From an uncultured Gammaproteobacteria bacterium (GTDB taxonomy: Bacteria > Patescibacteriota > Patescibacteriia > UBA9934): a stretch of DNA of 64,000 bases. The notes below the pieces were generated by a model, which ran no database searches, was not told the origin of the DNA, and was given only the letters and a program-made list of their open reading frames with translations. Positions 12,686 to 60,742 of the stretch are shown here, one piece after another. The stretch is taken from assembly GCA_964355955.1 (NCBI GenBank), contig CAYHFQ010000003.1:31777-95776 (forward strand). The letters run 5' to 3'. The translations under genes were made by a program, and so were the position numbers. Numbering within the stretch: position 1 is the stretch's first letter; the number at the start of each line of letters is the position of its first letter.

Positions 12686-12748
12686 GAGGTGCCCGATGCT
12701 CTGTGGAGAGCTGTGGGAGGTGGCGCGGCGAGATGGCCGAACGCGACG

Positions 12749-12777: not shown

Positions 12778-12867
12778 CTTTCTGCCTGTAAAAAGCAAGA
12801 TCGACACCGCCCGTGAGGGTGAGGTGCCGATCGAGGTCACACGGGAGCGCCGTGTGAGAGTGGCCTG

Positions 12868-13557: not shown

Positions 13558-13626
13558 CTTGATCCTTGAATCCCCTAATGGGGCGTATTGAATTTGAGAC
13601 TACCGGAAATGGTCGACTCGGGGAGG

Positions 13627-14131: not shown

Positions 14132-14143
14132 CTGATGTTTAAG

Positions 14144-14177
14144 GCCCCCTCCTAACTCCCCCATAGCTGGGGGAGAG
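14144..14177. repeat. 35-nt GC-rich palindromic element (E1), plus-strand form CCCCCTCCTAACTCCCCCATAGCTGGGGGAG. It is intergenic, immediately 3' of the ftsA stop.
   Basis: Near-identical copies at 18850, 30285 and 60268 and a degenerate copy at 17095. It contains the 8-bp hairpin CTCCCCCA/TGGGGGAG. Confidence 0.65.
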
Positions 14178-14184
14178 TTTTCGT

Positions 14185-16299: not shown

Positions 16300-17357
16300 G
16301 GCTTAGCATTAAGGTGAAAACTGTTGACCATCATCTCAAAAGTCTGCAAATATTCGATTTGACTGCGAGTGCCAAGATCGTAGGTGAGGGTTATGACCGA
16401 CGTGGCGTTATCGAGGTAAGTAGTCCTGTCGTCCGCGGTAGTTAAACCGTAGAAGCCATCTTTGGTTAGGGATTCTTTAAGTTGCTTGGCATCGTTGCCA
16501 GGTTGTTGGGCGTTATACCAGTCGGCTAAAGATTGTGTGGCAACCTTGGCCGTAGTACCAACGCTGATACTAGCTTGACGGGAAGAACGGAAAGCAATGG
16601 AGGTGCTGTCGGCTGAAGGGACTGGCGTCCAAGTCGTCGGGTAAAAGATTGTGAAAGCGAAAGCGGCGTCCGAGAAGACCTTAACAGCGCCGGTGTCGAG
16701 CAAAGTTAAAGGAGCTAAGCCGAGAGGGTCATAGCCGTGGAAGACTTCGTTGCCATCTAAATAAGTGTCCTTGTCAGAATCTGGTTCGCGGAAGTTAGTG
16801 CCGTAAAGCAGTTCCTCGATGTCGGTGAGGCCATCACTGTCAGTATCTTTGGCAGGAACAGGAATAGCAGCTTGAGCAGCAGCGGCGGCGGCATCTTGAG
16901 CAGCCTTGGCGGCGGCTTCAGCGGCGCGCTGCACTTCCTGTTGTTTGAGTTGGTTGAGTTGAGACTCGGCTAACTGTTTTTGCTGTTTGGCGGAGTCGAT
17001 TAGGCGGTAAGCAGCGAAACCGCCAGCACCGAGCACGATGAGCATGACGAAGAAGGTGATGAGGGGGCCTTTCCAGCTGTGCTTACGCTTTCGAGCCTCC
17101 CCTAGCCCCTCCATAGCTGGAGAGGGACTTACGACAGTTGGTGGAGCGACCACGGGAGGAGGAGGAGGTGGTGGAATGGGTTCTGGGCGGGGGGCGGTGA
17201 CCCCGCCTATTACTTCGGGTGATAGGCTAGCTTCGACGCCGTAAAACTCCCGCGGCATGGTGTGAATCACCACGTCAGTTGGCCCAGTAGTAGCCTCGAC
17301 GGTAGACGGTGAGGCCGTCACTGTGGGGTTAGGAGTTTTAGGCTTGCTGCCGAACAT
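16296..17357 (-). CDS. Single-pass membrane protein with a Pro-rich N-terminus and a C-terminal thrombospondin-type-3-like calcium-binding repeat (DTDSDGLTDIEE...DSDKDTYLDGNE).
   Basis: ORF translation. Paralogous in architecture to the next two genes. Contains the degenerate 35-nt element at 17095. Confidence 0.5.
   Translation of the reverse strand: MFGSKPKTPNPTVTASPSTVEATTGPTDVVIHTMPREFYGVEASLSPEVIGGVTAPRPEPIPPPPPPPVVAPPTVVSPSPAMEGLGEARKRKHSWKGPLITFFVMLIVLGAGGFAAYRLIDSAKQQKQLAESQLNQLKQQEVQRAAEAAAKAAQDAAAAAAQAAIPVPAKDTDSDGLTDIEELLYGTNFREPDSDKDTYLDGNEVFHGYDPLGLAPLTLLDTGAVKVFSDAAFAFTIFYPTTWTPVPSADSTSIAFRSSRQASISVGTTAKVATQSLADWYNAQQPGNDAKQLKESLTKDGFYGLTTADDRTTYLDNATSVITLTYDLGTRSQIEYLQTFEMMVNSFHLNAKP
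17095..17130. repeat. Degenerate copy of the 35-nt GC-rich element (GCCTCCCCTAGCCCCTCCATAGCTGGAGAGGG) inside the 16296..17357 coding sequence, encoding SPSPAMEGLGEA.
   Basis: Alignment to E1-E4; the stem is partly eroded. Confidence 0.35.
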
Positions 17358-18845: not shown

Positions 18846-18849
18846 AAAT

Positions 18850-18883
18850 GCCCCCTCCTAACTCCCCCATAACTGGGGGAGGG
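18850..18883. repeat. 35-nt GC-rich palindromic element (E2). It fills the 44-nt spacer between the giant-gene stop and the next start codon, and its AGGAGGGGG segment serves as the Shine-Dalgarno sequence.
   Basis: CCCCCTCCTAACTCCCCCATAACTGGGGGAGGG on the plus strand. The minus-strand sense is ...GGAGTTAGGAGGGGGCATTTATG. Confidence 0.65.
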
Positions 18884-18889
18884 TTTTAA

Positions 18890-21800
18890 TTACGGTGAAC
18901 AGTAGTTGAACTTGACGTTGCTGATGTTGACTTGGCCCTCGCCGGCGAAGGTGACGCGAAGTGGAAGAGTTTGTTCGGCGGACTGATCGCAGATGAAACC
19001 TTCTGGCCAAGGGATAGCCACACCGGTGCCCTCCATGACTGAACCCGAGGTAGTAGTGCCGCCGGAAGTGACGAGTGTAAAGGTAGGTTGAGTGATGGAG
19101 GCGACGATTGAGTTATAAGCGTCGGTGATGGCACTGGATGAGCTGCCGTGGTAGGCGTAGTCGATACTGGTGAGGTTGTTTGGCTGTGTTCTATCCACTG
19201 TGTAAATGGCGGGATCGTTACTCGACCAACCAGCAACCGTGCGGATGAAGCTGCTCGAGGTGGTCAAAGCGATGGTGTAGAGTTCGTAATCTGGAATATC
19301 ATCACCGTTCTCGTCGACGCCCTTAATAATATCGGCAGCGTCGGTCGTCGCGGCTGGATCATTGGCCTCGCCATCAGTCAAAAGGACAACTATTTTACGA
19401 GCATTAGTAACGGAACTTTGTGCATCAAGAAGGGTTTTAGCGGCATCAAGTCCTAGGTCCGTAGGCGTACCGCCATCGGCATCATAAAGATCGATATAGC
19501 CAGCGTATTCAGCCTCGGCAGTTGAGTCGGCGAAGGCTCTGGTAGTAACCTCTGTAACTTCCGTACAAGATGTATCTGTACTTAAGCAGCCACCTCGGTA
19601 TGTGACTAGCCCGACATGCATGTTATCTACGGAATAAAGTGCAGACAATGAGTTGGTCAGTCCCTCTTTAGCAGCATTCAACCGAGCAGATGAACCGTCT
19701 ACACGCCCATCGAAGCTCCAATTCATCGAGTTTGACAGATCCGTCACGAAAACGACGTAAACATCTGGTGCAGTCACGTTATCGAGCGAGACGTCCGCCG
19801 TGAGGGTAGCACCCAAGCGACAAGCTGGGAAGGTGATGGTAGCCGCGTTCGGAAGGTCGGAAGTGGTGCTGTCGGTGTAAGAGTAGAGGTCGACGCTGCT
19901 CGATGAGGCAGCACCTGGTTGGTTGTCGGTCATCAGCATGGCGTCGGAGAGATATGTTTCTGGGCAGGTGCTGTTACAGCTGCTGGCACAGACTGGGAAC
20001 TGACAGTCGTTGCTTGAACAGTCAGCATCCGAGAGACAAGCGACACCGAGGCCACGAGCGGTGTCTGTGCTGTCGCCGCCATTACATTGGCCGACGGTTT
20101 GGCAGACCTCGTTTTCGTTAGCAGTGCCATCGGAATTAAGATCAACCGAGAAACGCTGGCCGTTATAAGTACAAGAATTGGAACCGACTAGAGTATAGCT
20201 AGTACCGGTGCTCGTGGCGTCGTCCCATACTTGAATAGGGGAAGAATCAGAGACCAGGCGAATAGCTGGAACGTAGGAGTTTGGCAGATCGTAAGCGTCG
20301 CAGTACTCGTCGCCGTTCGCCACGCCGTCGCCGCAGAATTCACCAGAGAGGCTGGTGTACTTACAGCTGACGGAACAGGCGGTACAGGTGGATTCGTAAG
20401 CACTGGTACAGCCGGCGCCGTTGTTTACGCCCTCGTCACACTGCTCGGTTTCGAGTTCCAAGTAACCGTCGCCGCAGACGTTGGTTTTACACTGGTTGGT
20501 GCAGGTGTCGCCGGAGTCCGTGTTGCCGTCGTCACATTCTTCACCGGTATCGACCACGCCGTCGCCGCAGTTATTGAGAGCTTTGCAAGTAATGCCCTGG
20601 TAACCAGTAGCTGCATCCGTCCAGTTACAGGTGCCGCCGCTAGCCCCGTCGTCATCACAAACGCGAGTGCGGTAGGTTTGATAAGTGTTGTTTGAACAGG
20701 TGCCGCCAGCGCCACAGTCGTCATTAGTAGTACAGGCTTGGCCGACGAGGGTGGCGTCGTCGCTGAATTGGCAGACGGTGGAGACAGCACAGGCTCCAAA
20801 CGCCGGAGACTCCTCACCACCAGCGGTCAATCCACACTTTGGTCGCAAGCTCGTGCGGGATGATGAAGAGGTACCTGCCTCACATTGGCTGTCGGTCTCA
20901 CAAGCCTGGCCAGCCATGGTTCCTGATCTGTCGTTACAGATAGTGCCTTCATAAGAATCGAGGTCGCCATCACAGACTTCCCCGCTGTCGATAACGCCGT
21001 CGCCGCAGTAAGAAGCTGGACCTTGGCAGTCCCAGGCACAGGTGTTGTTCGGGTCAAATTCGTAATCACCATTAACGTAGCTGGCGCTCGTGGTACCGCC
21101 GCAGACATAGTCGACACCGCCAGTAGGACGAGCATATGTGGTGGTAGTCGAGCCACAGTCGCAAACTTCCCCACCGGCCAGGCTGCCGTCGCCGCAGTAG
21201 AAGGCGTCAACCGTAAGTGAGCAACTGGAGCCGCAGTAACCGTAACGTCCGTTCAATGAGCCGTCGTCGCAAGTTTCGCCGAGTGAGGTGTCGGTGACAC
21301 CGTCGCCGCAAGAGGAGACGACGCAGGTGGCCGAGGAGTCCGCGATGAAGGCGGAACAGGTGCTGTCGCAAACTTGAGATTGGATACCATTAGCATCGTC
21401 ATCGACCACGCCGTTAAGATCTGAATCGACCGTCAAGTCGGTATCGCAAGTGGCAGTGTCGCCACCGCGCTGACCGATTTCGCAGGCTTCCCCACCATTA
21501 ACAACGCCGTCGCCGCAGTTGCCGGTGCTGCCGTAAACGGTGGCGCCGTCGCAGAAGACTGCAGTAGTGAAGCCTTCAGCAGTACTGAGCGGGCTCGAGA
21601 CTTGGTACGTTACGGCGTCGTCGGTTGCTGTGTCGTAGTCGTAGTACCAACCAGCGGCTGCGTATTCGAGGTCAGCGTAAAGAGTGTAACTAGCGCTGCC
21701 GCCAGCTTTGTAGTGATAAACATGGCTGCCAGCTGGACAGATGTACTGGCCGTTGGCTTGGTTGACGCAAGTTGCAGAGTCGTAACTAGCTAGAGGATCT

Positions 21801-24800
21801 GCACCACAGCCGAGGAAGGCGTTGAGCGGATCCGCCAGCAATGAAGAATCACCAAGAGCGCCACCGAGCAAGTCCGTCCAAGAACCCCAGACGCTGGCAC
21901 CGAGGCCACGAACGAAGGTGCCAGAAGCGAGAGTCGGTACGTCGGAAGTGGCGTAAGTAGAGCTATAAGTGCTGACTTCGCTGCTGATAGTACGGAGATC
22001 GGACAAGCGCTTGACGTCGCGGGTAAGTTTGATTTTGTTGTTGGCACAAGTTTCGCCAGTGGCACAGTCGGCGTCTGAGGTACAAGATTTAGCCGTGTAG
22101 GCGGAACCGTCGGAACAGAGGGCGACATCGCTGACGTTGACGGCAAAGGAGAGGTTAGCGAGGAGCTGATCGTAAATAGCTTTGGTACTTTCGCTGGCAC
22201 CATCGTTGTAGGAGATGACGTAAATGTTGGGGTAGAGGGTGCTGCCACTCTCGTTAACGGCAGCGATGTAGGTGGTGCGGCCGTCTTGCACAGCCTGGAA
22301 ACCGTCCACGGTAGTAACAGATGGGCTACCCGAGAAACCCTGAGCTGTGAACCAAGCAGCTGGACTCAGGTAGTCGGAGTTGGTGACGACGCGGTAACCA
22401 ATGGCGTCGCCGCTGCCGTCGTCCACCTTGAACAAGTATTCTTTGAGAATGTTATCCGTGATGGAGTAGTCGGCGGCATTTTGGACGGTGAGGGCTGCGT
22501 AGTCGTCGGAGGTATCTTGAGCCACACCAGCGTCGCGGCAGTAGAAGTCTGAGAAGTTCATCCAGCCAGCCGAACCAAGCACGGCACCTTCTGCCAGGCT
22601 GGCGTCATCACTCCACGGGAAGGTGGCAGTCTTGATGTCTGGCCAAGTGTTTTCGCAGAGGAAGGCGATGACTTGATTGGTACCAGCCACGGCGGTGCCC
22701 TCAGAAGTACCAAATTGATCGTAATCGATGGTAGCGGTGGCAAGTACGTTAGCGTCACCGTTCTCACCAACGGCGGCGACCACTGCGGTGTCGGCGGTAT
22801 CAGCAGTTGAACCACCTGCAGTAGTGACGATGGTAGCATTCATGTCTTCTGCCCAAGCCCAGTTCCAGGAATAGACGCCGGAAAGAGATTCGATCGGCTC
22901 GCTCGTGGTGCCGTTATGGGTGTAAGCGGTGGCAGTGAAGTCGTGGCTTTCAGTAGCTTGTGAGAAGTAGCTTGGGCTCTCGGTATCACCGTCGGTTACT
23001 GACACACTATCCAAAGTACAAATTTCGGTACCAGTCGTGAAGTCCTGCCAAGCAAAACCGGCTGGGTTGAACATGGCGACGTCGTTGCTTGAGTGGACGC
23101 CTGGACGGGAGGAGTCGGTGACGTCGGCGTCGGTGATTACTTCCAATGTATAGCGAGCGTTGGCGAGCAACGGAATGTCATAGTGCATGACAACTTTGTA
23201 GTTGGTGACGCCCAAAACGTCGACAGCCTCCTGTGAGAACGAAGTGACCGGGACCACACAGTCGTTAGCGGCAGCTTCGGCGGAACGACCGGTGAATATT
23301 TGACGTACAGAAAGCCAGCCACGGGAATACCAGGCCAAGTGCGAGGTAGCGGCGATAGCTAAACGGGTATGGTCGGCCGGACAGATGTGATCTGGAACTG
23401 AACCTAAGTTGAGTTTAGCAAACATGAGAGGTTGAGCAGTGCCGCCTTCTGGTGTCGACAAGAAAGAGGCTAAGTCCATCTCTGTAGTAAAGAGGCCAGA
23501 AATTTCGGCATTGCGACAAACGTTGCGACCAGTTGGGTGCAAGGTGACGGTTGGGCGGGCCATGCAGCAGTTATTGACGCCAATGCCGACCACTTCCGGG
23601 AGTTCACAGTCGCTGTCTTGCAAAGCAGAACAGACGAGGGTGTAGGTGGAAGGGGTGAGTTCGGTTGAAATACCAGACTGAGGTTCGGTAACGTACATGC
23701 TAGCCACGGCTAAGTTGGTGTCGGGGTCGACTTCTTGAGCAGCCTGGAGGCCGATGGCTGCCAATTGCATGTCGTCGACGTTACTGTCGCCAGAGGAGGC
23801 TTCACAACCAGGGTACTCGCCCTGACCGGTGACGCCGTCGCCGCAGAAGGAAGGAATAGTGTAATCGGTAGAAGAACCAAGGTATGACGTGGCAGCTTCG
23901 GTCAAACAAGTAGCCGAACAGCCGTCACCATCCACACTGTTACCGTCGTCGCAAGTTTCGTAGAAAGGAGTAATAGTAAGGTCGCCGCAACTGGCACCGC
24001 CAATATCCGCTGAGCTAACAGAACCTTCACTCAGACATAATGAAGAACAGCCGTCGCCGTTGGCTACGTTGCCGTCGTCGCAGTCCTCGCCACCGATGGT
24101 GGTCTCGAAAGCGCGGTCATGGTTGCCGCAAGTCGCGTTAACTGAGCGCGAACCCTCGTTCAAACAAGTAGCGGAACAACCGTCGCCACTGCGCGTGTTG
24201 CCGTCGTCGCAGTCTTCGCCAGAATGATCGCCTGCTTGGTCTTGGCGACCATTGCCGCAAAGTGGAGCCCAAGTTGGACCACCGTCGCCACCCTCGCGCA
24301 AACAAGAAGCGGAACAACCGTCGCCGTCGTTAGTGTTGCCGTCTTCACATTCTTCACCGTAGCTGTTGCCAGCCCCGTCACCGATTCTACCGTCGCCACA
24401 AATGGCCGCGTACGGTTGGCTGCCGCCTGGGATACAAAGTGAAGTACAGCCAGCGGTAATACCGCTCTTGTCGGTGTCGACCTGAGCATTTGGCAACCAA
24501 CTAGCAACTTCGATCGAGCTGTTACTGCCGTCGTCGGTCCAGTCGGCAAAGCTCCAGTCGAAACCAGTGGTGGCGAGAAGCTGGCCCGAGGTGGAACAAG
24601 CGTCCATTTCACCGTAAGCGGAAACAGTGAAGTTTTGACGCTCACCAACGGTGTTGGCAGTGGCGGCTTCTGGAGAAACAGCTAAGCGATTAACAGCACA
24701 GACGTCAGTCCCCTCCTTAACGCCAAAGGTCCAGGAATAGTCACCGGTGTAATTGGTGCGGGTGAGAGCGACGCCGCTCGGAGTCGTGACGTCACCGGAG

Positions 24801-27800
24801 ATAACGACGCGATAGAATTTGCCTGGGACGAGATAGGTAGTGGCTGGCAAAACGAGATCGACCTGCTGACAATGAGTAGGAGCATCACTGGCGCAATTAG
24901 CGGCCGTGACTGTGTAGTCTGAGAATTCATCGCCGACGCCGACACTGCATAGTTCGTTAGGACAGGTATAGAGTTTAACTGCACCAGGCGCAACTAAGCT
25001 GACGGCGTCCATATCCGTGTTGAAGCTGGCACCGATTAGACCGTTACGGCAAGCCTCATTACAGCTCGGCCAAAAATCTGCGACGTAAGGATCAGTAAAG
25101 TTAATGGTAAGGACAGCGTTACCCTCAACGGCGCTGGCTCGCTCCTCTGCGGTCACGTCCGTGGTACCTTCAGCGTTGGCTTGAACGAGAGTGCAGCTAG
25201 AATTACCACCAGCGCAAACAGGGTCAGTGCTCGAGGTGAGGCCAGCGATACTATCGTCCACCGTCCAGTCGTAAACGTATTGAGTAGCGTCGAGAACTAC
25301 GCAAGCGTCGCTTGGTAAAGCGTTAAAGATATCGGTATCACCCTCCGCGTCGATGGTAGAAGTAGCTGGCGAAACTGAGACGTTGTTGACGGCACAGGCA
25401 GCACCAGTGCTCGAGACAGTGAAATGCCAAGAGGCGTTGGCAGCCATAGCAATGCCGCCAGGTGAGGAGATGGCAGCCGTGCTGACGGTGACTTTGTAGC
25501 TAGTGGCCGTGAGGAAAGGAGTGTTTGGAATCCAGGTGAAGGTAGTTGGTGAGGAGTCAGAAACCGTGAGGACACCGTCGGCCGTGATATCGGTGCCGCC
25601 AGTACAGGCGTCGCTATTACACTTTTCAATCTTCACAGCATCGTCGATCGTGCCGCGGTTCATGAGTTCTGTGAATTCGGCGTAAACTACGGCCTGTGGA
25701 CAGACTTCTGTAGTGAACGTGGAGTTTGGTACGGCACTGATGCGACCGCCGGCGGCTAAGTCACACTCGGTGACGATGGCTGGCGTGGTTGGAATGGTAC
25801 CAGTTGAGAAATACCACTGGTAAGCGGCTGGGCCAGGAGGATTGGTGGTATCAGTAGTTGAGTCACCGTAAGTGAAGTTGAGCGTGTTACTGGCGACACC
25901 TGAGGCCGAAAGAACCTGAACCGGACCAGAAGTGGCGCCACCTGGGGCCGTGACAGTTATCGTGGTGCTGTTCCAGGTACTCGTCAAGGTAGCTGGAATG
26001 CCGCTGAAGAAATTGACTGTACCGGTGGTAGAGCCGAGACTGCCAGTAATGGTGATAGTGTCCCCCGCCGCGCCAGTGTCTGGCGAGATGGAACAGATGC
26101 CAGGGCTAGGTGCGTTTGAGGTGATAGTAAAATCCGTGAGCGCTGAGGTGGCAGAATTTTGAGCGACGAGATAGATAGCGAAGTTGCTACCAGCGACGAC
26201 TGGGTCGCCGTTTTGGTAGTTAGCTGGCACGATGACCGTGACTTGAGTGTCTGACCAGTAATCAGAACAAGCGGCTGGGAAGCTGACGTCGGCCAAGGCC
26301 TTGTAACCGGAGTCTTTATTTTCGAAGAAAACCTGACCAATGTCGGCACCGAAGTTACTGCCTGTGAGCGTAATGTAGTCGCCGATAGCGGCTGAGGATG
26401 GGCTGATGCTGGCGATTGTCGGGACGGTGGTGACGGCGGTGGCCAGGCTGTAGAGAATAGTATTAGAGGCAACACCGTCGACCGTTACGCCAACCGCATA
26501 ACTGCCGTCACGAGCAGCAGGAGCGGTGACGTTGAGCGAAGTGTCGCTCCAACCGCTGTATGAACTAGCGGCGTTAGTACCGAAAGAGACAGTTGAGGTG
26601 CCCTGCGTGTCACCGAAATCGAGACCAGACAGCACGACCGCGTCGGTTGGTGCACCAGAAGTCGGTAAAAGTGAGCAAAGTTTAGGGTGGATGACATCGT
26701 TAACTACGAAGTCGTCGAAAATCTGACCGTAATCGTCGTTGCTTGAATCACTGAGTGGAGTTGTGCCGCCAGTGGTAATGGTAATTGGACCAGTCACAGC
26801 ACCGTCTGGGACCATGACGACTACGCCGGTCGACGACCAGGTAGCACAAGATGGGATAAGCGCAACGACCGTGCCGCCATCCGCCGCAGTGAAAGTTACA
26901 GTTGGCTGAACTGAGCCGAAGCCGATGCCGGCGATAGTAACAAAAGTACCAACCGCACCAGAGAGCGGTGAAATATCCGTAATTTCTGGTAATTCTGTAC
27001 AGATACCGTCGAGGCAGCTAGAGCTTGGGCCGCAGTCGGCGTCCGTGGTACAGGTGCTGCCAGTGCAAGCACCGCAATAATCTAGGCTGGTGCTATCACC
27101 GCCACAGTTGAGACCGGTTTCGCCGTGACTGGTATCAATTTCCGTATTAAAGCACCAAGGTCCACGCGCTGTAACGTGGATAGTGTCGTCGCTCGTGTTG
27201 CCGGCGATATCGGTGACGGTGGTGGCTAGTTTGTAGCTGGTTGAGTTGACCAAAGCTGTGGTATCCCAGTTGGTGGCAATAGTAGTATCGGCAAGATTGT
27301 CACCGCTCGCGCCAACTGAGTCGAACTGAACGTCTTCCGCGCTAAAACTAGCGTCGGCGACCTGGCTGTCGTCCGTGGCGTGGACCTGAACGAGAGCGGA
27401 AGAACCAGATTCAACGCTGCCGCTCGGGATAGTGATAACGGCGGTTGGGTTAGCAACGTCGACTAAGCTGCCAGTGGTAAAGGAAGATGTACAACTAGTG
27501 GTAGTACAAACAAGAGCATTACCGGTGGTACTCTTAATGGCGGTCGTAGTGGTGACGTTGTAAGTGGTGCCGTCTGGAGCGTCGTAGTCAAAGCAGTAAC
27601 GTGTTTCGTTAGGTGTTGGACAAGCAGCGTTAGGACGGAAGCTGGCGGCGTTGCCGCTAACAGTAATGGTACCGTCGACAATAGCGCCACTCGCGGCGTT
27701 GGTGACTACGAGGTTGCCGTTGAGGGTGGCGGCATCGAGATTTTTGGAGAAAGTAACGCGGAGTAAGATATTGCGGATGGCGACTGGGCCGTCAGGCGAG

Positions 27801-28273
27801 AAATCAGTGACTGTAAATGAAGAGGTGCTGCTGCTACCGCCGAATCCCCCACCACCGCTGCCATTGTCGCCAGTATTACCGCCGCCAGCACCCGTGGCGC
27901 TAATAAGAGCGGAGAGGATGAAGCTGGCAATGGCGAATGAAAGTAAGATGATGGCGAGACCGATGACACCGCGGATCAGAATTTTCTTGGCGCGTTCTAA
28001 CTTTTCTTCGTTGCCAGCGGCGGTCATCCAGGTGAAGCCACCGTAAAGAACAATGAGAACCGAGAGGATGCCGAGAACGCCAATGACGACGCGGATAATG
28101 CGAGCGATGATGATTTTTGGATCCTCCGCCGTGAGGCCAGAGGCAGCGCCGACGTTGGCCAAGCTGTCAGTTACCTGTGCTAGCAGGTGTGGGGTGTGCA
28201 AAAATACGCCAGCCGCAATGAGGCCAAGGACAGAAGGGAGAACGTATTTAAGGCGGAACCAACGCATAGCCAA
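18890..28273 (-). CDS. Giant (3127 aa) cell-surface protein. It has an N-terminal signal/two-helix membrane anchor, beta-rich Ig-like regions, many Myxococcus-type cysteine-rich repeats (CGDGxxxxGExCDDGNxxxGDGCSxxC) and a C-terminal von Willebrand factor A domain (DLSNSM MIDAS motif).
   Basis: Single uninterrupted 9.4 kb ORF. Repeats include ICGDGRIGDGAGNSYGEECEDGNTNDGDGCSASC and NCGDGVVDTGEECDDGNTDSGDTC. The C-terminus has VYVVFVTDLSNSMNW...VVLLTDGEAND. Confidence 0.8.
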   Translation of the reverse strand: MAMRWFRLKYVLPSVLGLIAAGVFLHTPHLLAQVTDSLANVGAASGLTAEDPKIIIARIIRVVIGVLGILSVLIVLYGGFTWMTAAGNEEKLERAKKILIRGVIGLAIILLSFAIASFILSALISATGAGGGNTGDNGSGGGGFGGSSSTSSFTVTDFSPDGPVAIRNILLRVTFSKNLDAATLNGNLVVTNAASGAIVDGTITVSGNAASFRPNAACPTPNETRYCFDYDAPDGTTYNVTTTTAIKSTTGNALVCTTTSCTSSFTTGSLVDVANPTAVITIPSGSVESGSSALVQVHATDDSQVADASFSAEDVQFDSVGASGDNLADTTIATNWDTTALVNSTSYKLATTVTDIAGNTSDDTIHVTARGPWCFNTEIDTSHGETGLNCGGDSTSLDYCGACTGSTCTTDADCGPSSSCLDGICTELPEITDISPLSGAVGTFVTIAGIGFGSVQPTVTFTAADGGTVVALIPSCATWSSTGVVVMVPDGAVTGPITITTGGTTPLSDSSNDDYGQIFDDFVVNDVIHPKLCSLLPTSGAPTDAVVLSGLDFGDTQGTSTVSFGTNAASSYSGWSDTSLNVTAPAARDGSYAVGVTVDGVASNTILYSLATAVTTVPTIASISPSSAAIGDYITLTGSNFGADIGQVFFENKDSGYKALADVSFPAACSDYWSDTQVTVIVPANYQNGDPVVAGSNFAIYLVAQNSATSALTDFTITSNAPSPGICSISPDTGAAGDTITITGSLGSTTGTVNFFSGIPATLTSTWNSTTITVTAPGGATSGPVQVLSASGVASNTLNFTYGDSTTDTTNPPGPAAYQWYFSTGTIPTTPAIVTECDLAAGGRISAVPNSTFTTEVCPQAVVYAEFTELMNRGTIDDAVKIEKCNSDACTGGTDITADGVLTVSDSSPTTFTWIPNTPFLTATSYKVTVSTAAISSPGGIAMAANASWHFTVSSTGAACAVNNVSVSPATSTIDAEGDTDIFNALPSDACVVLDATQYVYDWTVDDSIAGLTSSTDPVCAGGNSSCTLVQANAEGTTDVTAEERASAVEGNAVLTINFTDPYVADFWPSCNEACRNGLIGASFNTDMDAVSLVAPGAVKLYTCPNELCSVGVGDEFSDYTVTAANCASDAPTHCQQVDLVLPATTYLVPGKFYRVVISGDVTTPSGVALTRTNYTGDYSWTFGVKEGTDVCAVNRLAVSPEAATANTVGERQNFTVSAYGEMDACSTSGQLLATTGFDWSFADWTDDGSNSSIEVASWLPNAQVDTDKSGITAGCTSLCIPGGSQPYAAICGDGRIGDGAGNSYGEECEDGNTNDGDGCSASCLREGGDGGPTWAPLCGNGRQDQAGDHSGEDCDDGNTRSGDGCSATCLNEGSRSVNATCGNHDRAFETTIGGEDCDDGNVANGDGCSSLCLSEGSVSSADIGGASCGDLTITPFYETCDDGNSVDGDGCSATCLTEAATSYLGSSTDYTIPSFCGDGVTGQGEYPGCEASSGDSNVDDMQLAAIGLQAAQEVDPDTNLAVASMYVTEPQSGISTELTPSTYTLVCSALQDSDCELPEVVGIGVNNCCMARPTVTLHPTGRNVCRNAEISGLFTTEMDLASFLSTPEGGTAQPLMFAKLNLGSVPDHICPADHTRLAIAATSHLAWYSRGWLSVRQIFTGRSAEAAANDCVVPVTSFSQEAVDVLGVTNYKVVMHYDIPLLANARYTLEVITDADVTDSSRPGVHSSNDVAMFNPAGFAWQDFTTGTEICTLDSVSVTDGDTESPSYFSQATESHDFTATAYTHNGTTSEPIESLSGVYSWNWAWAEDMNATIVTTAGGSTADTADTAVVAAVGENGDANVLATATIDYDQFGTSEGTAVAGTNQVIAFLCENTWPDIKTATFPWSDDASLAEGAVLGSAGWMNFSDFYCRDAGVAQDTSDDYAALTVQNAADYSITDNILKEYLFKVDDGSGDAIGYRVVTNSDYLSPAAWFTAQGFSGSPSVTTVDGFQAVQDGRTTYIAAVNESGSTLYPNIYVISYNDGASESTKAIYDQLLANLSFAVNVSDVALCSDGSAYTAKSCTSDADCATGETCANNKIKLTRDVKRLSDLRTISSEVSTYSSTYATSDVPTLASGTFVRGLGASVWGSWTDLLGGALGDSSLLADPLNAFLGCGADPLASYDSATCVNQANGQYICPAGSHVYHYKAGGSASYTLYADLEYAAAGWYYDYDTATDDAVTYQVSSPLSTAEGFTTAVFCDGATVYGSTGNCGDGVVNGGEACEIGQRGGDTATCDTDLTVDSDLNGVVDDDANGIQSQVCDSTCSAFIADSSATCVVSSCGDGVTDTSLGETCDDGSLNGRYGYCGSSCSLTVDAFYCGDGSLAGGEVCDCGSTTTTYARPTGGVDYVCGGTTSASYVNGDYEFDPNNTCAWDCQGPASYCGDGVIDSGEVCDGDLDSYEGTICNDRSGTMAGQACETDSQCEAGTSSSSRTSLRPKCGLTAGGEESPAFGACAVSTVCQFSDDATLVGQACTTNDDCGAGGTCSNNTYQTYRTRVCDDDGASGGTCNWTDAATGYQGITCKALNNCGDGVVDTGEECDDGNTDSGDTCTNQCKTNVCGDGYLELETEQCDEGVNNGAGCTSAYESTCTACSVSCKYTSLSGEFCGDGVANGDEYCDAYDLPNSYVPAIRLVSDSSPIQVWDDATSTGTSYTLVGSNSCTYNGQRFSVDLNSDGTANENEVCQTVGQCNGGDSTDTARGLGVACLSDADCSSNDCQFPVCASSCNSTCPETYLSDAMLMTDNQPGAASSSSVDLYSYTDSTTSDLPNAATITFPACRLGATLTADVSLDNVTAPDVYVVFVTDLSNSMNWSFDGRVDGSSARLNAAKEGLTNSLSALYSVDNMHVGLVTYRGGCLSTDTSCTEVTEVTTRAFADSTAEAEYAGYIDLYDADGGTPTDLGLDAAKTLLDAQSSVTNARKIVVLLTDGEANDPAATTDAADIIKGVDENGDDIPDYELYTIALTTSSSFIRTVAGWSSNDPAIYTVDRTQPNNLTSIDYAYHGSSSSAITDAYNSIVASITQPTFTLVTSGGTTTSGSVMEGTGVAIPWPEGFICDQSAEQTLPLRVTFAGEGQVNISNVKFNYCSP

Positions 28274-30208: not shown

Positions 30209-31333
30209 CTAGGTTGTGGAGAACATTTTAGCGATGGCGGTTTTTAGTTCTATCAGGCCTGTTTTGGCGTGTGCGGAAACTACAACGCCCCCTCTAACTC
30301 CCCCATAGCTGGGGGAGGACGTACTCAAAAGTTTTTTGATGGTGGCCGGCTTCTTGATGGCGTCGATTTTATTGTAAACGATGAGACGTGGATGGTCCGC
30401 GATATTCAACTGCTGCAGCACATCATCGACCACCGCCATCTTAGCAACGTACTTGGGATCAGCCACGTCGACGACCTGCAAAAGTAAATCGGCGTTAGCG
30501 GCTTCGGAGAGCGTGCTGTGAAAAGCGCGGATGAGCTGGGGTGGGAGGCCGGCGATGAAGCCGATGGTGTCCGAGAGTAAAATAGTCTCGTTAAGTTCAG
30601 GAATATAAACGTCGGCCACGCGCGTGTCGAGGGTGGCGAAGAGCTTATCCGCGGCGTATTCCTGGCGTTTACCGAGCGCATTTAAGAGCGACGTCTTGCC
30701 GGCGTTGGTATAGCCGACCAAGGCGACGGTTTTCTTTTCTTGGCGTCGACGATGCTGTTGGTGCTGGTCGCGCACGCTTTGGCACTTCTCGAGCTTCTGC
30801 AAAATCTGCTTTTCCTGCTCGCGTAAGTGGCGCTTCATCGCTTCCGTGTTGCCTTCCCCACTACCGCCGACTGTACCACGACCACCGCGTTGACGGCCGA
30901 GTTCCGCACCCATGTTGAAAATACGGGGGCCCATGTGACGCAAACGGGCTAGTTCGATTTCCAGCTTGGCCTCGCTCGTTTTAGCATGTTTGTCGAAAAT
31001 GTTGAGAATGAGGTCGATGCGATCCCAGACCTGTATTTTGGCACCACGAAGCAGCTCTTCGAGATTGAAAATTTGTTGCGGCTTTAAGACTTCGTTAATG
31101 ATGAGCAAATCGGCACCGAGCAACTTGCCTTCTGCCACAATCTCCTCCACCTTGCCGCTGCCGATGTAGGTGCGATTGTCGGGCTTAGCGCGACGCTGGA
31201 CGGTTCGGACGACGGCTACTCCCCCGTACGTCTTCGTCAATTCCTCGAGCTCAGCGAGACGCTCTAAAGCCTCGGCCTTCGGCACGGTGTAATGAACGAG
31301 GTCGGCGAGAATGGCGCGGCGAAGTGTGGGCAT
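30209..31333 (-). CDS. hflX: GTPase HflX.
   Basis: HflX N-domain plus G-domain (VALVGYTNAGKTSLLNAL, DTIGF, NKID). The C-terminal region carries the in-frame 35-nt element (SSPSYGGVRGG). Confidence 0.9.
   Translation of the reverse strand: MPTLRRAILADLVHYTVPKAEALERLAELEELTKTYGGVAVVRTVQRRAKPDNRTYIGSGKVEEIVAEGKLLGADLLIINEVLKPQQIFNLEELLRGAKIQVWDRIDLILNIFDKHAKTSEAKLEIELARLRHMGPRIFNMGAELGRQRGGRGTVGGSGEGNTEAMKRHLREQEKQILQKLEKCQSVRDQHQQHRRRQEKKTVALVGYTNAGKTSLLNALGKRQEYAADKLFATLDTRVADVYIPELNETILLSDTIGFIAGLPPQLIRAFHSTLSEAANADLLLQVVDVADPKYVAKMAVVDDVLQQLNIADHPRLIVYNKIDAIKKPATIKKLLSTSSPSYGGVRGGVVVSAHAKTGLIELKTAIAKMFSTT
30285..30318. repeat. 35-nt GC-rich palindromic element (E3) inserted in-frame in hflX, encoding SSPSYGGVRGGV.
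   Basis: The minus-sense sequence TCCTCCCCCAGCTATGGGGGAGTTAGAGGGGGCGTT translates to S S P S Y G G V R G G V. Nucleotide sequence is near-identical to E1, E2 and E4. Confidence 0.6.
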
Positions 31334-42727: not shown

Positions 42728-42864
42728 GTCGCTCGCAACCGCCGTATCTCCTGTTCCTAGCTGCGCCTCGTCAACCGCACGAGCTCACTGACCTCGTCTG
42801 ACTCGGGAGCTCGACGCAGGGCCGAGGCTAGTGTCGTCACAGGAGACACGGCAGTCGCTCGCTC
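42728..42864. repeat. Structured intergenic repeat, copy B, beginning 1 nt after the der stop. Outer flanks are as in copy A. The inner ~75-nt Y motif is GCCTCG-TCAACCGCAC-GAGCTC-...ACCTCGTCTGACTCGG...-GAGCTCG-CGCAGGGC-CGAGGC.
   Basis: Aligned to copies C and D. It has nested stems: outer CTCCTGT/ACAGGAG, middle GCCTCG/CGAGGC, inner CGAGCTC/GAGCTCG. Confidence 0.65.
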
Positions 42865-42936
42865 TTAAAGGCCTTCGTCTTGCTAAAAAGTTTAAACTAC
42901 CGACTACCAACTACTATCTACCAACTTTCATACTCT

Positions 42937-43500
42937 ATGGCAATCATGATCGTGGGACTCGGTAATCCAGGTGTAGCGTATAAGAAGACCCGCCACAATG
43001 CGGGTTTTTTGGCGCTTGATAAGTTAGCTGATGAGTGGGGCGGGAGCTGGCGCGTGAATAACACAGCAAAAGCCGAGGTAGCGGAGGTGATTGTCGGCGA
43101 GATGAAGATAGTACTAGTGAAGCCACAAACTTTCATGAATAATTCTGGCCTCGCAGTGGCGTCGCTCATGCATCGCTATAAGATTACGATTGAACGAGTG
43201 TGGGTGGTTTACGACGACGCGGCGATTGCGAATGACCAGGTGCGAGTACGCCGTGGTGGCAGTGCTGGCGGACATAATGGGCTGAAGTCGATCATCGCGC
43301 ACAACGGCGATCCGTTCGCTCGTTTCCGTATCGGACTCGGCAATCCACCAGAACGAGTACCACTCGAAGAGTTTGTATTGCAGAATTTTAAGGCGGAGGA
43401 AATGACGCTGCTCGAGCATAAATTAGACGTGGTGATTGAACTCATCAACGAAGCCAGAGTGACTGGCGTCCAAGAAAAAACCGTAACTATCGCCACATGA
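42937..43500 (+). CDS. pth: Peptidyl-tRNA hydrolase.
   Basis: MAIMIVGLGNPG...HNAGF...GHNGL. The track ORF starts earlier (42880); ATG 42937 matches the canonical Pth N-terminus. Confidence 0.9.
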   Translation: MAIMIVGLGNPGVAYKKTRHNAGFLALDKLADEWGGSWRVNNTAKAEVAEVIVGEMKIVLVKPQTFMNNSGLAVASLMHRYKITIERVWVVYDDAAIANDQVRVRRGGSAGGHNGLKSIIAHNGDPFARFRIGLGNPPERVPLEEFVLQNFKAEEMTLLEHKLDVVIELINEARVTGVQEKTVTIAT

Positions 43501-44585
43501 TCTCCCCCTACCGCTTAGCTCTCACGCATTTTGACGACCTCACCATCGGCCCAGTCCGTCATGCGAGCTTGCTTGAAGTTTTGGGGACGGATGAGAATAT
43601 TTGGCGGGCTAATATCGATGAGTTGCAGAGTGGCGGCCTGACGCACGGCATGGCGAAAAAGTTTATTGACTGGCGCGCCACGCAAAACCCGCAAGCCTTG
43701 CTCGATGACACATTGAAACGCGGAATAAGCCTGGTAACGCTCGACGACCCAGAGTACCCGCAACTGCTCCGCGCCATTCACGACGCACCGTACGTCCTCT
43801 ACTACCGCGGTACGTTGCCACCGGCCGATGCGCTGTTGGTCGGCGTGGTGGGGTCGCGTCAGGCTACACCGTACGGCTTGAAAGTGGCTGCTGAGTTGTC
43901 CGAGAAGCTGGCGCGCCATCACTTGGTAATCGTCAGTGGTTTAGCCTGGGGTATTGATGAGGCGGCGCACAGAGCAACGGTTAACGTAAATGGTAAGACG
44001 ATTGCGGTGCTTGGCTGTGGGCTTGATGCTAATGATTCTTATAGGAAAATAGAATTAGCAGAGGAGATAGTAAGCAAGGGTGGAGCAATAATCAGCGAGT
44101 ATCCGCCGGAGATGCCTTCGTACACTCATCATTTCCCTATCCGTAACCGCATAATTTCTGGCATGAGCAAGGGAACACTCGTGGTTGAAGCGGCAGAAAA
44201 ATCCGGCTCGTTAATAACAGCCCGAGCGGCCTTAGGAGAAAATCGTGAAGTATTTGCCGTGCCTGGTTCGATTCACTCCCCTACTTCCGTTGGTACTAAT
44301 CGTTTATGTCGCGATGGTGCCCACGTAGTGACTTCTGCCGAAGACATTCTTAATGTGCTCGGTGTAACGCCAAGAGAAACTGCCACCGAAGCTCCAGTAA
44401 CCATGATACCGCCAGCTACGCCAGAAGCTAGAGCGATTCTCGAGCTCTTAAACCACGAACCAAAACATATTGATGATCTTGCTATAGCAGTCGCGCTGCC
44501 AAGCCACATCGTCGGCGGAACGTTGACGATTATGGAGATTGAGGGTTACGCTCGGCATGTTGGTGGTGGAAATTATACGAGATAA
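43497..44585 (+). CDS. dprA: DNA processing protein DprA (Smf).
   Basis: Rossmann-like DprA core (VGVVGSRQATPYGL...VIVSGLAWGIDEAAHRA). Its start overlaps the pth stop (ATGA). Confidence 0.85.
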   Translation: MISPYRLALTHFDDLTIGPVRHASLLEVLGTDENIWRANIDELQSGGLTHGMAKKFIDWRATQNPQALLDDTLKRGISLVTLDDPEYPQLLRAIHDAPYVLYYRGTLPPADALLVGVVGSRQATPYGLKVAAELSEKLARHHLVIVSGLAWGIDEAAHRATVNVNGKTIAVLGCGLDANDSYRKIELAEEIVSKGGAIISEYPPEMPSYTHHFPIRNRIISGMSKGTLVVEAAEKSGSLITARAALGENREVFAVPGSIHSPTSVGTNRLCRDGAHVVTSAEDILNVLGVTPRETATEAPVTMIPPATPEARAILELLNHEPKHIDDLAIAVALPSHIVGGTLTIMEIEGYARHVGGGNYTR

Positions 44586-44589
44586 CTGC

Positions 44590-44855
44590 AAGTGAGTAAT
44601 GCCTGACGATGAGACGAGCTGAAGTCGGCCCTGCACCAGCGCCCGAGTCAGACGAGGTGAGACGGATGGTGCGGTTGACGACTTCGGTGAGGCGAAGCGT
44701 TAGACATTACTCACTTGTCGATTCAGATGATACGGACAGCACTTCGTCTCACTCATGCCGTCAACCGCAGAATCCCCGACCATACCTCGTCTGACTCGGA
44801 GGGATTCCGCAGGGCCGGCATTCGTTCGCCTCATTGCTATCTGTATCATCTGAAT
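44590..44855. repeat. Structured repeat, copy C. It holds two Y-motif units in opposite orientation (inverted 44610-44698, direct 44748-44830). Each is enclosed by its own 13-16-bp outer inverted repeat: CAAGTGAGTAATG/CATTACTCACTTG and GATTCAGATGATAC(G)GACAG/CTGTATCATCTGAATC. The element ends 8 nt before the folC ATG.
   Basis: Reverse complement of 44610-44698 aligns base-for-base with copy D's Y motif. Stems co-vary: GAAGTCG/CGACTTC and ATGCCG/CGGCAT replace GCCTCG/CGAGGC; GAATCCC/GGGATTC replaces CGAGCTC/GAGCTCG. Confidence 0.65.
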
Positions 44856-44863
44856 CTGTGAAT

Positions 44864-46120
44864 ATGAAAAATTACAAAGAAGCCGTACAGCGCCTGATAG
44901 GTCTCAGTAATTTGGAGACGTCGTGGCGCGGGAGTCAGGAGAGTTTGCAGGAGTCGCTCAAACGGACCAAGCAGTTACTGGCCAAGCTCGAGTACCCCGA
45001 GCGTAGATTAAAATTTGTGCATGTGACGGGCACGAGCGGTAAAGGTAGTGTGACCAACTTGATTCACGAGATGCTCTTGGCGGATGGTCGGGCTGTGGCG
45101 AGTTATACGTCGCCGCACACGACGACGCTGCTCGAAAGATTTAGAGTGAATGAGAAGTTGATTGAACCGAAGCTACTCATACAAGCCATCGAGCTCGTTA
45201 TCGCGGCGTATTCGATTCATCTAGAAGAAAGCAAGCAGACGCTCAGCTACTTCGAACTCGCAACCGTCGTCGCACTGGTGGCCTTCGTGTTGGCCAAGGT
45301 TGAGTGGTGTGTGCTCGAGGTGGGACTCGGTGGACGCTGGGATTCGACAAATGTCATTCCGAAGAAAGAGGTGGCGGTGATTACCAACGTCGACCTGGAT
45401 CATACGGATATTTTAGGGAATAGTGTAGAGGAGATTGCGCAGGAAAAAGTAGGAATTATTACGGGGCGCTGTGCGGTTATTGCCGGCGTCGTCCAAGCGA
45501 ATTTGCGGGAGTTGATAAGTGATGTGGCGAGCGATAAGAAGGCCAGCGTGAGATTTATTGAGGCTCCGAATGGTGATCATCGCTTACATAACGCGTTGAT
45601 TGCGACAGCAGCGGCGCAAGCGGTGGGCGTGAAAATCGAAGTGATTGAGAAGGCGCTAGCGAAGAGTAAGGGACTGCCCTGCCGGTTTGAGGTGATGAGT
45701 CAGAAGCCGCTCGTAATTGTCGACGGGGCGCACAATGAGGCCAAGATGAACGGAACGGTGCAGCTACTGAAGTCGATGAAACGAGGAAAAGTGCATGTCA
45801 TCTTTGGTTGTAAGCACAGTAAAGATGCGGGGGCGATGCTCAAGGCTTTAGCACCGCTGGCTGACGTCATCCATACCACGCGCTACCAACATGGCTATGG
45901 CGCACCAGAGAATCCAGCAGTGCTCGCTAAGCTGATTACGAAGGGTAAGCGAGGAAAGACGTGGCTCTTTGCCGACGAGGCGCTGCAGCAGGTACTCGAC
46001 GAAATGAAACCAGAAGATACACTTTTAATTACAGGATCGCTCTATTTGGCTGGAGAATTAAGGACACATTGGGTGAGTGAAGAATCGATTGTTAGAAGGC
46101 AATCTAGCCAAGTTAAATAA
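44864..46120 (+). CDS. folC: Folylpolyglutamate synthase/dihydrofolate synthase (Mur ligase family).
   Basis: ATP-binding VTGTSGKGS, DHTDILG and the Mur ligase C-domain. The track start is TTG 44834; ATG 44864 is preferred. Confidence 0.8.
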   Translation: MKNYKEAVQRLIGLSNLETSWRGSQESLQESLKRTKQLLAKLEYPERRLKFVHVTGTSGKGSVTNLIHEMLLADGRAVASYTSPHTTTLLERFRVNEKLIEPKLLIQAIELVIAAYSIHLEESKQTLSYFELATVVALVAFVLAKVEWCVLEVGLGGRWDSTNVIPKKEVAVITNVDLDHTDILGNSVEEIAQEKVGIITGRCAVIAGVVQANLRELISDVASDKKASVRFIEAPNGDHRLHNALIATAAAQAVGVKIEVIEKALAKSKGLPCRFEVMSQKPLVIVDGAHNEAKMNGTVQLLKSMKRGKVHVIFGCKHSKDAGAMLKALAPLADVIHTTRYQHGYGAPENPAVLAKLITKGKRGKTWLFADEALQQVLDEMKPEDTLLITGSLYLAGELRTHWVSEESIVRRQSSQVK

Positions 46121-46250
46121 CTCGCAACCGCCAATCCCCTATTCCTAGCGGCGCCTCGTCAACCGCACCAGCCGTCTCACCTCGTATGACTCGGGCGCTG
46201 GCGCAGGGCCGAGGCTGGCGTCGTCATAGGAGATATGGCAATTGCTCGCT
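46121..46250. repeat. Structured repeat, copy D, immediately after the folC stop. Flanks are diverged (CTCGCAACCGCCAATCCCCTATTCCTAGC ... GTCGTCATAGGAGATATGGCAATTGCTCGCT) and the Y motif is conserved.
   Basis: Outer stem CCCCTAT/ATAGGAG versus CTCCTGT/ACAGGAG in copy B, i.e. a G-C to A-T compensatory change. Inner stem CCAGC/GCTGG. Confidence 0.65.
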
Positions 46251-46278
46251 ACTTGGCCTTACAAGCTGCGTAAGAAAA

Positions 46279-46307
46279 TTGACATAACAAGCTCTGGAGG
46301 CTATCGT
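46279..46307 (+). promoter_or_regulatory. Putative topA promoter TTGACA-N17-TATCGT, with the ATG 12 nt downstream (short or leaderless 5' UTR).
   Basis: TTGACA at 46279-46284 and TATCGT at 46302-46307. No Shine-Dalgarno sequence before ATG 46319. Confidence 0.4.
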
Positions 46308-59950: not shown

Positions 59951-60667
59951 TTAATCGATGCGGTGAATCATGATGTCGCCCCAGGTACTATTCTGAGTTG
60001 TACGGATGATGTTGCGGCGGAGGAGTTCGAGGAGAGCCAGAAAGCTCATGACGACGTCGATCTTCTTTTGGGCGCCGGCTGTAACTTGATTGAAGCTGAG
60101 GCTGGCGTTTAAGGAAATGGCTTCGCGAAGTTCGTCGATCCGTTCCTCAACTGACTTTACTCGCTCCAACGAGACTGCCGTGAGGGCGAAGAAGGGCTCG
60201 AGGCGTTTTTGGATGTCGCGGTAGGCGTCGGCGAGAGCGGAAGCTGTCGGTGGCCTCCCGCCGAAGTTCAAGCCCCCTCTAGCTCCCCCATAACTGGGGG
60301 AGGACTTTACATACGGCCGGGGGAAGAGGAGGTGCTGACCGTAACGTTCCTCGAGGCGTTCGGCAGCGTCCACGAATTCGCGGTAAATGCGGAGTTGCTC
60401 GGCCAGGACGTCTGAGGCGAGGTCTTCGTCGACCAGGCGCAGGAACGGGAGTAGTTCGCGGCTTTTGAGGTAAATGAGGCGGGAGGCGACGAGGAGGAAG
60501 TCGGCCAGGCCGTCGGCGGGGACGTGAGTTTCTTGTAAGTACAGCAAAAAATCGTCAGCAACTTTGGCTAACGAAATTTTGGCTATCTCGAGGTCCTTCT
60601 TTTCTATGAGCTCGAGGAGGAGCTCCAGAGGACCCGAGAATTCCTCGTTTTTGACGGCGAAATCCAT
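59951..60667 (-). CDS. scpA: Segregation and condensation protein A. It carries an in-frame copy of the 35-nt element.
   Basis: ScpA N-terminal motif FSGPLELLLELI. Internal KSSPSYGGARGGLN is encoded by the element at 60268-60302. Confidence 0.85.
   Translation of the reverse strand: MDFAVKNEEFSGPLELLLELIEKKDLEIAKISLAKVADDFLLYLQETHVPADGLADFLLVASRLIYLKSRELLPFLRLVDEDLASDVLAEQLRIYREFVDAAERLEERYGQHLLFPRPYVKSSPSYGGARGGLNFGGRPPTASALADAYRDIQKRLEPFFALTAVSLERVKSVEERIDELREAISLNASLSFNQVTAGAQKKIDVVMSFLALLELLRRNIIRTTQNSTWGDIMIHRID
60268..60302. repeat. 35-nt GC-rich palindromic element (E4) inserted in-frame in scpA, encoding SSPSYGGARGG.
   Basis: Minus sense TCCTCCCCCAGTTATGGGGGAGCTAGAGGGGGCTTG, in the same frame as the hflX copy. 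Confidence 0.6.
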
Positions 60668-60696
60668 GACCTGATTGTAACACGAACTGCTAAAAC

Positions 60697-60742
60697 TGGG
60701 GATAAGTGGTCTACCTCAAAGATATACCTTTGAGGTAGACCA
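60697..60742. repeat. Hairpin family copy 3: GGGGATAAG-TGGTCTACCTCAAAG-atatacc-TTTGAGGTAGACCA followed by AATTTTTA.
   Basis: Shares GATAAGTGGTCTAC...GTAGACCA with copies 1 and 2. The inner stem is again different but complementary (CTCAAA/TTTGAG). The loop contains TATAC. Confidence 0.65.

Follow-up and report, generated by a model that had tools for sequence, protein, structure and literature searches.

Candidate-phyla-radiation genomes are small and tightly packed, and the window analyzed here, a 64,000-nt stretch of one such genome, carries a pair of large inverted units in the gap between dprA and folC. We asked what these units are: a device that controls folC, or members of a dispersed repeat family. 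The gap lies between dprA (43497-44585, + strand; stop codon at 44585) and folC (44864-46120, + strand), which encodes a protein with Mur ligase M/C and FOL3_C domains (Pfam). Unit C occupies 44589-44717 (129 nt) and has its sense strand on the + strand in the window genome, and unit D occupies 44720-44856 (137 nt) with its sense strand on the - strand. Each is closed by a perfect outer clamp. In unit C the 5' arm CAAGTGAGTAATG (44589-44601) pairs over 13 bp with the 3' arm CATTACTCACTTG (44705-44717); in unit D the left arm GATTCAGATGATAC (44720-44733) pairs over 14 bp with the right arm GTATCATCTGAATC (44843-44856), which ends 8 nt short of the folC ATG. The two clamps are unrelated in sequence, and that of unit C is specific to this unit and covaries among lineages. 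Inside the clamps, both units consist of a shell (W) around a core (Y), the latter at 44617-44688 on the + strand in unit C and at 44751-44826 on the - strand in unit D. The loop motif CCGAGUCAGACGAGGU of unit C (44643-44658, + strand) matches the reverse complement of unit D at 16 of 16 positions (44784-44799, - strand), flanked by inverted matches of 79% (44664-44697 with 44742-44775) and 77% (44609-44634 with 44809-44834). The initial annotation had described an inverted two-unit arrangement of ~260 nt just 5' of folC, in which the units match each other, each has its own perfect outer inverted repeat and the second clamp stops 8 nt before the ATG, and our analysis confirmed it in each of these respects.

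The folC start at ATG 44864 is backed by the N-terminus MKNYKEAVQR, which is conserved in five relatives. Gene callers run folC into unit D, both in the window, where the ORF from a TTG at 44834 is an over-extension, and in the relative L016 (4001-5392; a public 463-aa call), and annotated FolC lengths are therefore inflated in genomes that carry the pair. Three independent assemblies of other samples (ERZ4201063, ERZ4201065 and SRR4754859) contain a C/D sequence identical to that of the window; because they agree exactly, the region is not an assembly artefact.

Both units are predicted to fold stably, with sense-strand energies well below those of shuffled sequences (z ~ -7.5; 0 of 200 shuffles as good). 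The predicted energies for unit C are -63.1 kcal/mol on the sense strand versus -52.8 kcal/mol on the antisense strand, and those for unit D are -68.9 versus -55.1 kcal/mol. Folded as one RNA of 281 nt, the region has its energy minimum in one long hairpin of C with D, at -130.7 kcal/mol (z = -7.6) as against ~ -118 kcal/mol for two hairpins. The previous description of a double hairpin is therefore correct in that each unit folds, but the double hairpin is one of two possible predicted folds and the long hairpin is the more stable of them.

The Y core is 72 nt long and consists of a helix (P1), an asymmetric junction (GCC/UUGA), a second helix (P2) and an apical loop beginning CCGAGUCAKACGAGGU. 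Its 16-mer core has five matches in the window against 0.57 expected; outside units C and D it is found at 42791-42806 and 46179-46194. From a scan of 185,579 species-representative genomes, we recovered the Y core solely in Candidatus Uhrbacteria, at 13 loci with 16 exact matches, 15 of them in the MAG LJ_bin-3226 and one in UBA11707. A covariance model (R1), built from the scanned copies and run on the fetched loci, scored the Y core of unit C at 86.6 bits (E = 9e-23) and that of unit D at 77.5 bits (E = 4.5e-20). Across the sequence searched, the model detected 23 copies in all, of which four lie in the window; to the exact pattern matches it added two copies within the fetched loci, and LJ_bin-3226 has at least 16 Y cores. 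All 23 model-found copies are intergenic. The neighbors of Y copies are housekeeping genes (der, pth, dprA, folC, topA, dnaK, dnaJ, polA and ftsZ), relative to which the Y sense strand is oriented ~50:50. Two pattern scans of JGI metagenome contigs gave zero matches and one chance match in coding DNA, a scan of viral contigs for the core gave none, and blastn against phages and plasmids gave none. No copy matched an Rfam family at gathering thresholds, and with permissive E-values included the best hit in the region was SNORD49 at E = 4.6, which is noise. Judging from these genome scans, the family appears so far only in one clade of Candidatus Uhrbacteria.

Y cores occur in more than one shell. 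The X shell, which has conserved internal loops GACGACGCCA / GCAGCUAGGAA and ends GAGCGAGCGAC ... GCGAGCGAC, is found family-wide, in copies B and E of the window and in most LJ_bin-3226 copies, and can hold other cargos such as Z. Copy B (X shell with Y core; 42729-42864, - strand) lies between der and pth, and copy E (X shell with Y core; 46124-46254, - strand) lies between folC and topA within a full insertion of ~46118-46274. Copy A (8417-8570, - strand), upstream of ftsZ, combines the X shell with cargo Z. The W shell of units C and D has a symmetric purine-rich internal loop, UGAGRCGARG on both sides, and among the Uhrbacteria sequence examined was seen only at the dprA-folC locus. Five X-Y copies from unrelated loci of LJ_bin-3226 are 92-97% identical, indicating recent amplification. 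At the orthologous der-pth site, the window and L003 carry X-Y and the UBA11707 lineage carries X-Z, indicating a cargo exchange within a single shell. Every 4-kb bin of the window has a positive GC skew whatever the gene strand, which makes + the leading strand over its full length; four of the five X/W-type elements in the window have their sense strand on the - strand, a sample too small for a test of orientation bias.

Element ends are not shared across the family. Units C and D, L006, L013 and the X-type copies have clamps of unrelated sequence, and no terminal inverted repeats are common to all. X-type copies have GCGAGCGAC at both ends, the same in every copy, which identifies it as part of the element rather than a target-site duplication. 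One comparison of a filled and an empty folC-topA site fits either a TAA duplication or insertion 3' of TTAC, and TTAC/TTAG as a candidate target motif was met this once. This site is empty (36 nt) in L014, L015 and L016 and holds different insertions in L003 and L005, and both the folC-topA and the ftsZ-nrdR gaps contain different insertions in different lineages. In the window genome, the end of insertion E provides the folC stop codon (46118-46120); in relatives that lack it, the folC stop and the -35 box of the topA promoter (window 46279-46307) overlap.

Several other small elements accompany these sites. A further element of ~170-200 nt, with the sense start ...TAAGGCCAAGTAGCGAGGGGCAG, is present at L003 4420-4561 and L030 3853-4050, the two being mutually related; one lineage has it between folC and topA and another between ftsZ and nrdR, and both sites are empty of it in the window. 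Tandem heptamers (AACTACC/GACTACC, or GGTAG on the other strand) lie at window 42896-42935 (+ strand), just 5' of the pth ATG, and similar arrays lie beside X-type copies in L001, L003, L007, L010, L011 and L017. The array is on the sense-5' side, outside the hairpin, in 7 of 16 X-type units, and two arrays form a hairpin at L016 2100-2190; the heptamer array could be another mosaic module or a 5'-UTR element. Upstream of ftsZ in L029, a 22-nt perfect palindrome, CACGTCGGTCGCGACCGACGTG, is nested in a Y core and flanked by a 5-nt CCTGC duplication. It occurs at L029 ~2240-2270 and ~2070-2095 and at L015 1-30, in part standing alone outside any Y core, and resembles a very small mobile element that has duplicated its target site.

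A perfect hairpin, TGGTCTAC-N6-GTATAC-N6-GTAGACCA, abuts the perfect DnaA-box sequence TTATCCACA at window 2137-2197, 4135-4185 and 60692-60742 and at L031 ~2340-2390. Perfect DnaA boxes at 2142, 2189, 4140 and 8387 number four against 0.32 expected, one of them in a conserved region 5' of ftsZ where X-type elements or the DnaA-box hairpin insert depending on the lineage; no dnaA or dnaN gene was found near these repeats. Adjoining copy A, window 8600-13600 contains tandem paralogous ORFs (~206-243 aa) with no Pfam match and several local repeat families. A 3127-aa ORF at 18890-28273 (- strand), with internal repeats at 129-138-nt spacing, probably encodes a large repeat-domain surface protein.

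We examined the structure of the units in eight orthologous C and D units from four lineages. Compensatory changes affect 27 of the 47 predicted pairs, and 94% of cells are paired, against 29-41% when the partners are slid. None of 500 shuffled controls reached any of five structure measures, and the X-Y copies gave the same structural picture. In 23 of 24 units, the strand with CCGAGUCAGACGAGGU folds better, by 4-30 kcal/mol. Cells with G.U are more frequent than those with A.C, at 37:6 and 51:7 in two sets (88 versus 13 in total), and the asymmetry persists under DNA energy parameters. Every aligned copy has the same U.G pair in P2, and most copies, including 14 of 14 X-Y copies, keep a G.U pair beside it. 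The structure is under selection on one strand only, and the strand asymmetry indicates that the active form is a folded single strand, with data that fit RNA or DNA alike. A loop-junction pseudoknot (GUCA:UGAC) was considered and dropped, as unit D of L016, changed at 5 of 16 loop positions, has GUAC in the loop and the junction stays as before.

The pth-dprA-folC-topA locus was fetched from six further lineages to follow the pair through the clade. A neighbor-joining tree of DprA+FolC+TopA gave the topology (L023,(L016,(L015,(L014,L003,(L005,window))))), and the lineages that carry the C+D pair are L003, L005, L016 and that of the window. L014, whose FolC is 88% identical, lacks the pair and has a 21-nt dprA-folC spacer that contains ACCTCGTCTGACTC, 14 nt of the Y loop and thus a deletion remnant. 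L015 (FolC 87% identical) also lacks the pair, and its dprA and folC overlap; in the more distant L023, L024 and L025, the dprA-folC gap is 6 nt and holds no pair. Because L014 and L015 fall inside the pair-carrying clade, presence and absence on the tree point to an old insertion in a tightly coupled operon. The ancestor of the clade acquired the pair at the dprA-folC junction of its packed pth-dprA-folC-topA operon; four lineages have retained it and two have lost it.

Where the pair was kept, it is conserved beyond the surrounding sequence. When the window is compared with L005, overall identity is 84% for the three genes and 56% at their four-fold synonymous sites, whereas unit D is 95.6% and unit C 83% identical, and the D core is unchanged at 76 of 76 nt. 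A recent recombination tract was rejected as the source of unit D conservation, since the 150-nt coding windows flanking the pair are only 73-91% identical. Conversion from other copies is ruled out because the W-Y type is unique to dprA-folC in the sequence examined. Between the window and L016, four-fold sites are 47%, unit C 82% and unit D 73% identical. From these comparisons, the C/D units are under purifying selection, or protected by some other process. Conservation above the neutral level makes a purely selfish, decaying insertion unlikely and points to a function at the level of the host.

The units have also changed orientation. The window flanks are colinear with L003, L005 and L016, but unit C is 82-85% identical to its orthologs when these are reverse-complemented, and unit D 73-96%, as against 53-70% in the forward orientation. 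Unit D reaches 94-96% identity to L003 and L005 solely when reverse-complemented. In all carriers compared, the shell nearer dprA is of the C type and that nearer folC of the D type, indicating two separate in-place flips rather than one block inversion. A single inversion of the whole C-D block, which would swap the shell order, was rejected, and so was recombination between the two Y loops, since the arms brought together in that way would not be complementary. Each orientation was found in three independent assemblies per lineage and is therefore a fixed difference between lineages.

Template switching at inverted repeats homogenizes the arms and inverts the spacer (PMC8604942, PMC8794818), and replication template switching across the inverted arms would be the simplest reading of the in-place inversions together with the unit-specific perfect clamps. 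Such switching would explain why the clamps are perfect and locus-specific. As in the hairpin inversions described in those studies (PMC8604942, PMC8794818), a segment is inverted in place with unchanged flanks and perfect, locus-specific arms, and many stem positions change together while pairing is kept. That work concerns a mutational process and not an element family; it accounts for the flips and clamps but not for the conserved core or its spread. Both flips fall on one short branch and none elsewhere on the tree, which hints that the mutually inverted arrangement may itself matter.

C/D could instead be a cis-regulatory folC leader, in which the D clamp occludes the ribosome or attenuates read-through from dprA. 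The D clamp is within the region covered by an initiating ribosome, the element stands in place of the coupling or overlap found in relatives, and D, the unit that adjoins folC, is the better conserved of the two. However, L014 and L015, at 87-88% FolC identity, and all more distant relatives do without the pair; in the folC leader comparison it was absent from L014, L015, L023 and L024 and inverted in the window relative to L003, L005 and L016. Inversion alters the mRNA-strand sequence and weakens the fold by 10-14 kcal/mol, and the same core adjoins unrelated genes in either orientation. Around the folC ATG, the unpaired probability was computed as 0.54-0.63, not below the 0.06-0.52 of relatives without the element. 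The initial annotation correctly noted that no Shine-Dalgarno sequence precedes folC, but this is the norm for the genome, in which only ~9 of 53 window genes have an SD-like motif. These findings do not support its suggestion of a regulatory clamp that blocks the folC start.

Transcription signals gave a similar result. A scan of 42.5-46.5 kb found no promoter-like or terminator-like site with C or D and no U-tract terminator; its sole find was the topA promoter (TTGACA-17-TATCGT), which is conserved and whose -10 hexamer ends 11 nt before the topA ATG, leaving a short leader. An sRNA gene with its own promoter and an intrinsic terminator were set aside as explanations on this basis. Elsewhere in the window, the hairpin CTCCCCCAYAGCTGGGGGAG, with flanking A and T runs, occurs at 14141-14181, 18847-18887, 30283-30323 and 60268-60308, with a weaker example at 17091-17131; these hairpins are probably bidirectional intrinsic terminators and show the form that terminators really take in this genome. 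Absence in close relatives, the flips, a start no less accessible than in relatives without the element and the lack of a promoter-like or terminator-like site together argue against a dedicated folC regulator, and we consider the leader explanation improbable. At most, the pair uncouples folC from dprA and puts a stable stem in the ribosome landing zone, and a side effect on dprA-folC coupling is possible.

The initial annotation also compared the pair with the head-to-head arrangement of REP/BIME-like elements. REPINs are REP doublets that form hairpins and are mobilized by RAYT proteins, which are HUH tyrosine transposases (PMC3337134, PMC3116915). This comparison is correct as to kind: the family is multi-copy, intergenic, hairpin-forming and present or absent among close relatives. 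REP/BIME elements also have many extragenic copies and inverted clusters, comparable to the 23 intergenic copies and the inverted C/D pair. Both REP/REPIN and the present elements are short, non-coding, single-strand hairpins that occur as singlets, as inverted doublets in either configuration and as mosaics, and both show vertical inheritance, long persistence and near-identical subfamilies within a genome (PMC3337134). As in a REPIN, two inverted units make one long hairpin, here over the full length of the C/D pair (-130.7 kcal/mol). The near-identical population typical of REPINs is seen in the X-Y subfamily (92-97% over five loci) but not in the W-Y type.

These elements are nevertheless not REP proper. 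REP/BIME units are imperfect palindromes of ~20-40 nt, whereas the units here measure ~130 nt (129-139 nt) and have four helices. The REP GTAG foot is absent; the feet of C and D are CAAGTGAG... and GATTCAGA..., and neither unit contains GTAG. REPs conserve their stems, whereas this family conserves the loops and junction while the stems vary, and the two share no sequence similarity. The host also differs from REP hosts, being a candidate-phyla-radiation bacterium with a genome of ~1 Mb. A six-frame phmmer search with E. coli RayT over 228 kb of Uhrbacteria sequence, covering ~10-20% of any one genome, gave no homolog (best E 0.63), and a RAYT was likewise lacking from the full 234 kb of sequence available. 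A RAYT gene is typically single-copy and flanked by repeats, and the neighbors of 10 copies here are housekeeping genes. A Pfam search of 30 neighboring ORFs found no transposase or recombinase, and a literature search returned no report of REP-like repeat systems in candidate-phyla-radiation genomes.

Other repeat families resemble this one in part. Rickettsia palindromic elements, Neisseria Correia elements and enterobacterial ERIC are MITE-like palindromic repeats of 100-150 bp, some of them in reduced genomes, and have conserved terminal inverted repeats, with a TA target duplication in Correia. The present family is like them in size (100-150 bp), in its long stable hairpin, in its location between housekeeping genes, in its presence or absence among close relatives and in its nested or variant internal segments. 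Shared terminal inverted repeats of the MITE kind are absent here, given the unrelated clamps described above; C and D each have an outer clamp of their own, and what is conserved lies inside the unit and is strand-specific. Integron attC sites, IS200/IS605 subterminal hairpins and ORF-less PATE elements share with it an emphasis on structure over stem sequence, a single active strand, conserved mismatches and extrahelical features, and a length of ~60-140 nt. However, the attC R''/R' boxes (RYYYAAC / GTTRRRY) are absent at the unit feet, the junction GTTGAC does not fit GTTRRRY, no cassette array, integrase or TnpA is nearby, and the copies are dispersed singly.

Taken together, we consider it probable that C and D are two copies of a new REP/REPIN-like family of mosaic hairpin repeats rather than a dedicated folC regulator. 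The active form would be one specific strand folded on itself, whether RNA or DNA made single-stranded during replication or transposition. The conserved loops of this form may be read by a putative trans-acting protein, much as HUH (Y1) tyrosine transposases read REP/REPIN hairpins, and such a factor would account for spread within genomes. Against this explanation, no transposase or recombinase was found near the copies, all of whose neighbors are housekeeping genes, the family has no shared terminal inverted repeats and no clear target-site duplication, and two inversions on one short branch are odd for a random mutational process. The units are also far better conserved than neutral sites (D 95.6% and C 83% versus 56%). 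A different explanation is that the Y core and its shell are a structured nucleic acid with a function for the host, kept by purifying selection, for which multi-copy spread is secondary. Such an element could be a non-coding RNA or RNA motif (protein-binding, a processing site or a ribozyme) or a strand-specific single-stranded DNA site for priming or recombination. The D core, unchanged at 76 of 76 nt between the window and L005 although their four-fold sites are 56% identical, fits this explanation, as do wobble pairs, loop and junction sequences that are invariant over ~30 copies, the strong strand asymmetry and the purine-rich internal loop on both sides of the W shell. The pair is also still mutually inverted after the double flip, so that any transcript of the locus always has one sense copy. 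We nevertheless regard this host-functional explanation as rather unlikely. The units come with no promoter-like or terminator-like signals, their orientation relative to flanking genes is random, very close relatives lack them and show no substitute, other sites turn over rapidly, no Rfam family matches, and the D unit of L016 is altered at 5 of 16 loop positions.

The flips themselves could suggest that each unit is an inverton, flipped at its clamps by a site-specific recombinase and giving phase-variable expression; inverted repeats of 13-14 bp do surround a segment of ~100 bp whose orientation differs among lineages. However, three independent assemblies per lineage agree on one fixed orientation, and the clamps differ among C, D and other copies, so there is no common recombinase site. 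With no σ70-type promoter-like site inside the units and no invertase or other recombinase among their neighbors, this explanation is very improbable. A further proposal is that the Y core is more than selfish DNA: it would be a functional, structured and strand-specific module of candidate-phyla-radiation bacteria, either a new class of protein-recognized single-stranded DNA site or a structured RNA, which purifying selection maintains at host loci such as dprA-folC, and the inverted pair would itself be selected. We offer this only tentatively, as rather unlikely. If it were true, either flip would leave one sense copy on each strand.

The Uhrbacteria clade thus harbors an assortment of mosaic hairpin elements, which combine shells X and W with cargos Y, Z and others and include a 22-nt palindrome nested in a Y core. 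These elements turn over fast at some operon junctions, yet at dprA-folC they outlast the flanking coding sequence in conservation. The locus also provides a clean natural case of in-place hairpin inversion and clamp formation. The covariance model and the short list of genomes that carry the family are a basis for seeking a trans-acting partner, and if the Y core is indeed a functional module, its partner protein would reveal a new mobile-element or nucleic-acid-processing system in ultra-small genomes.
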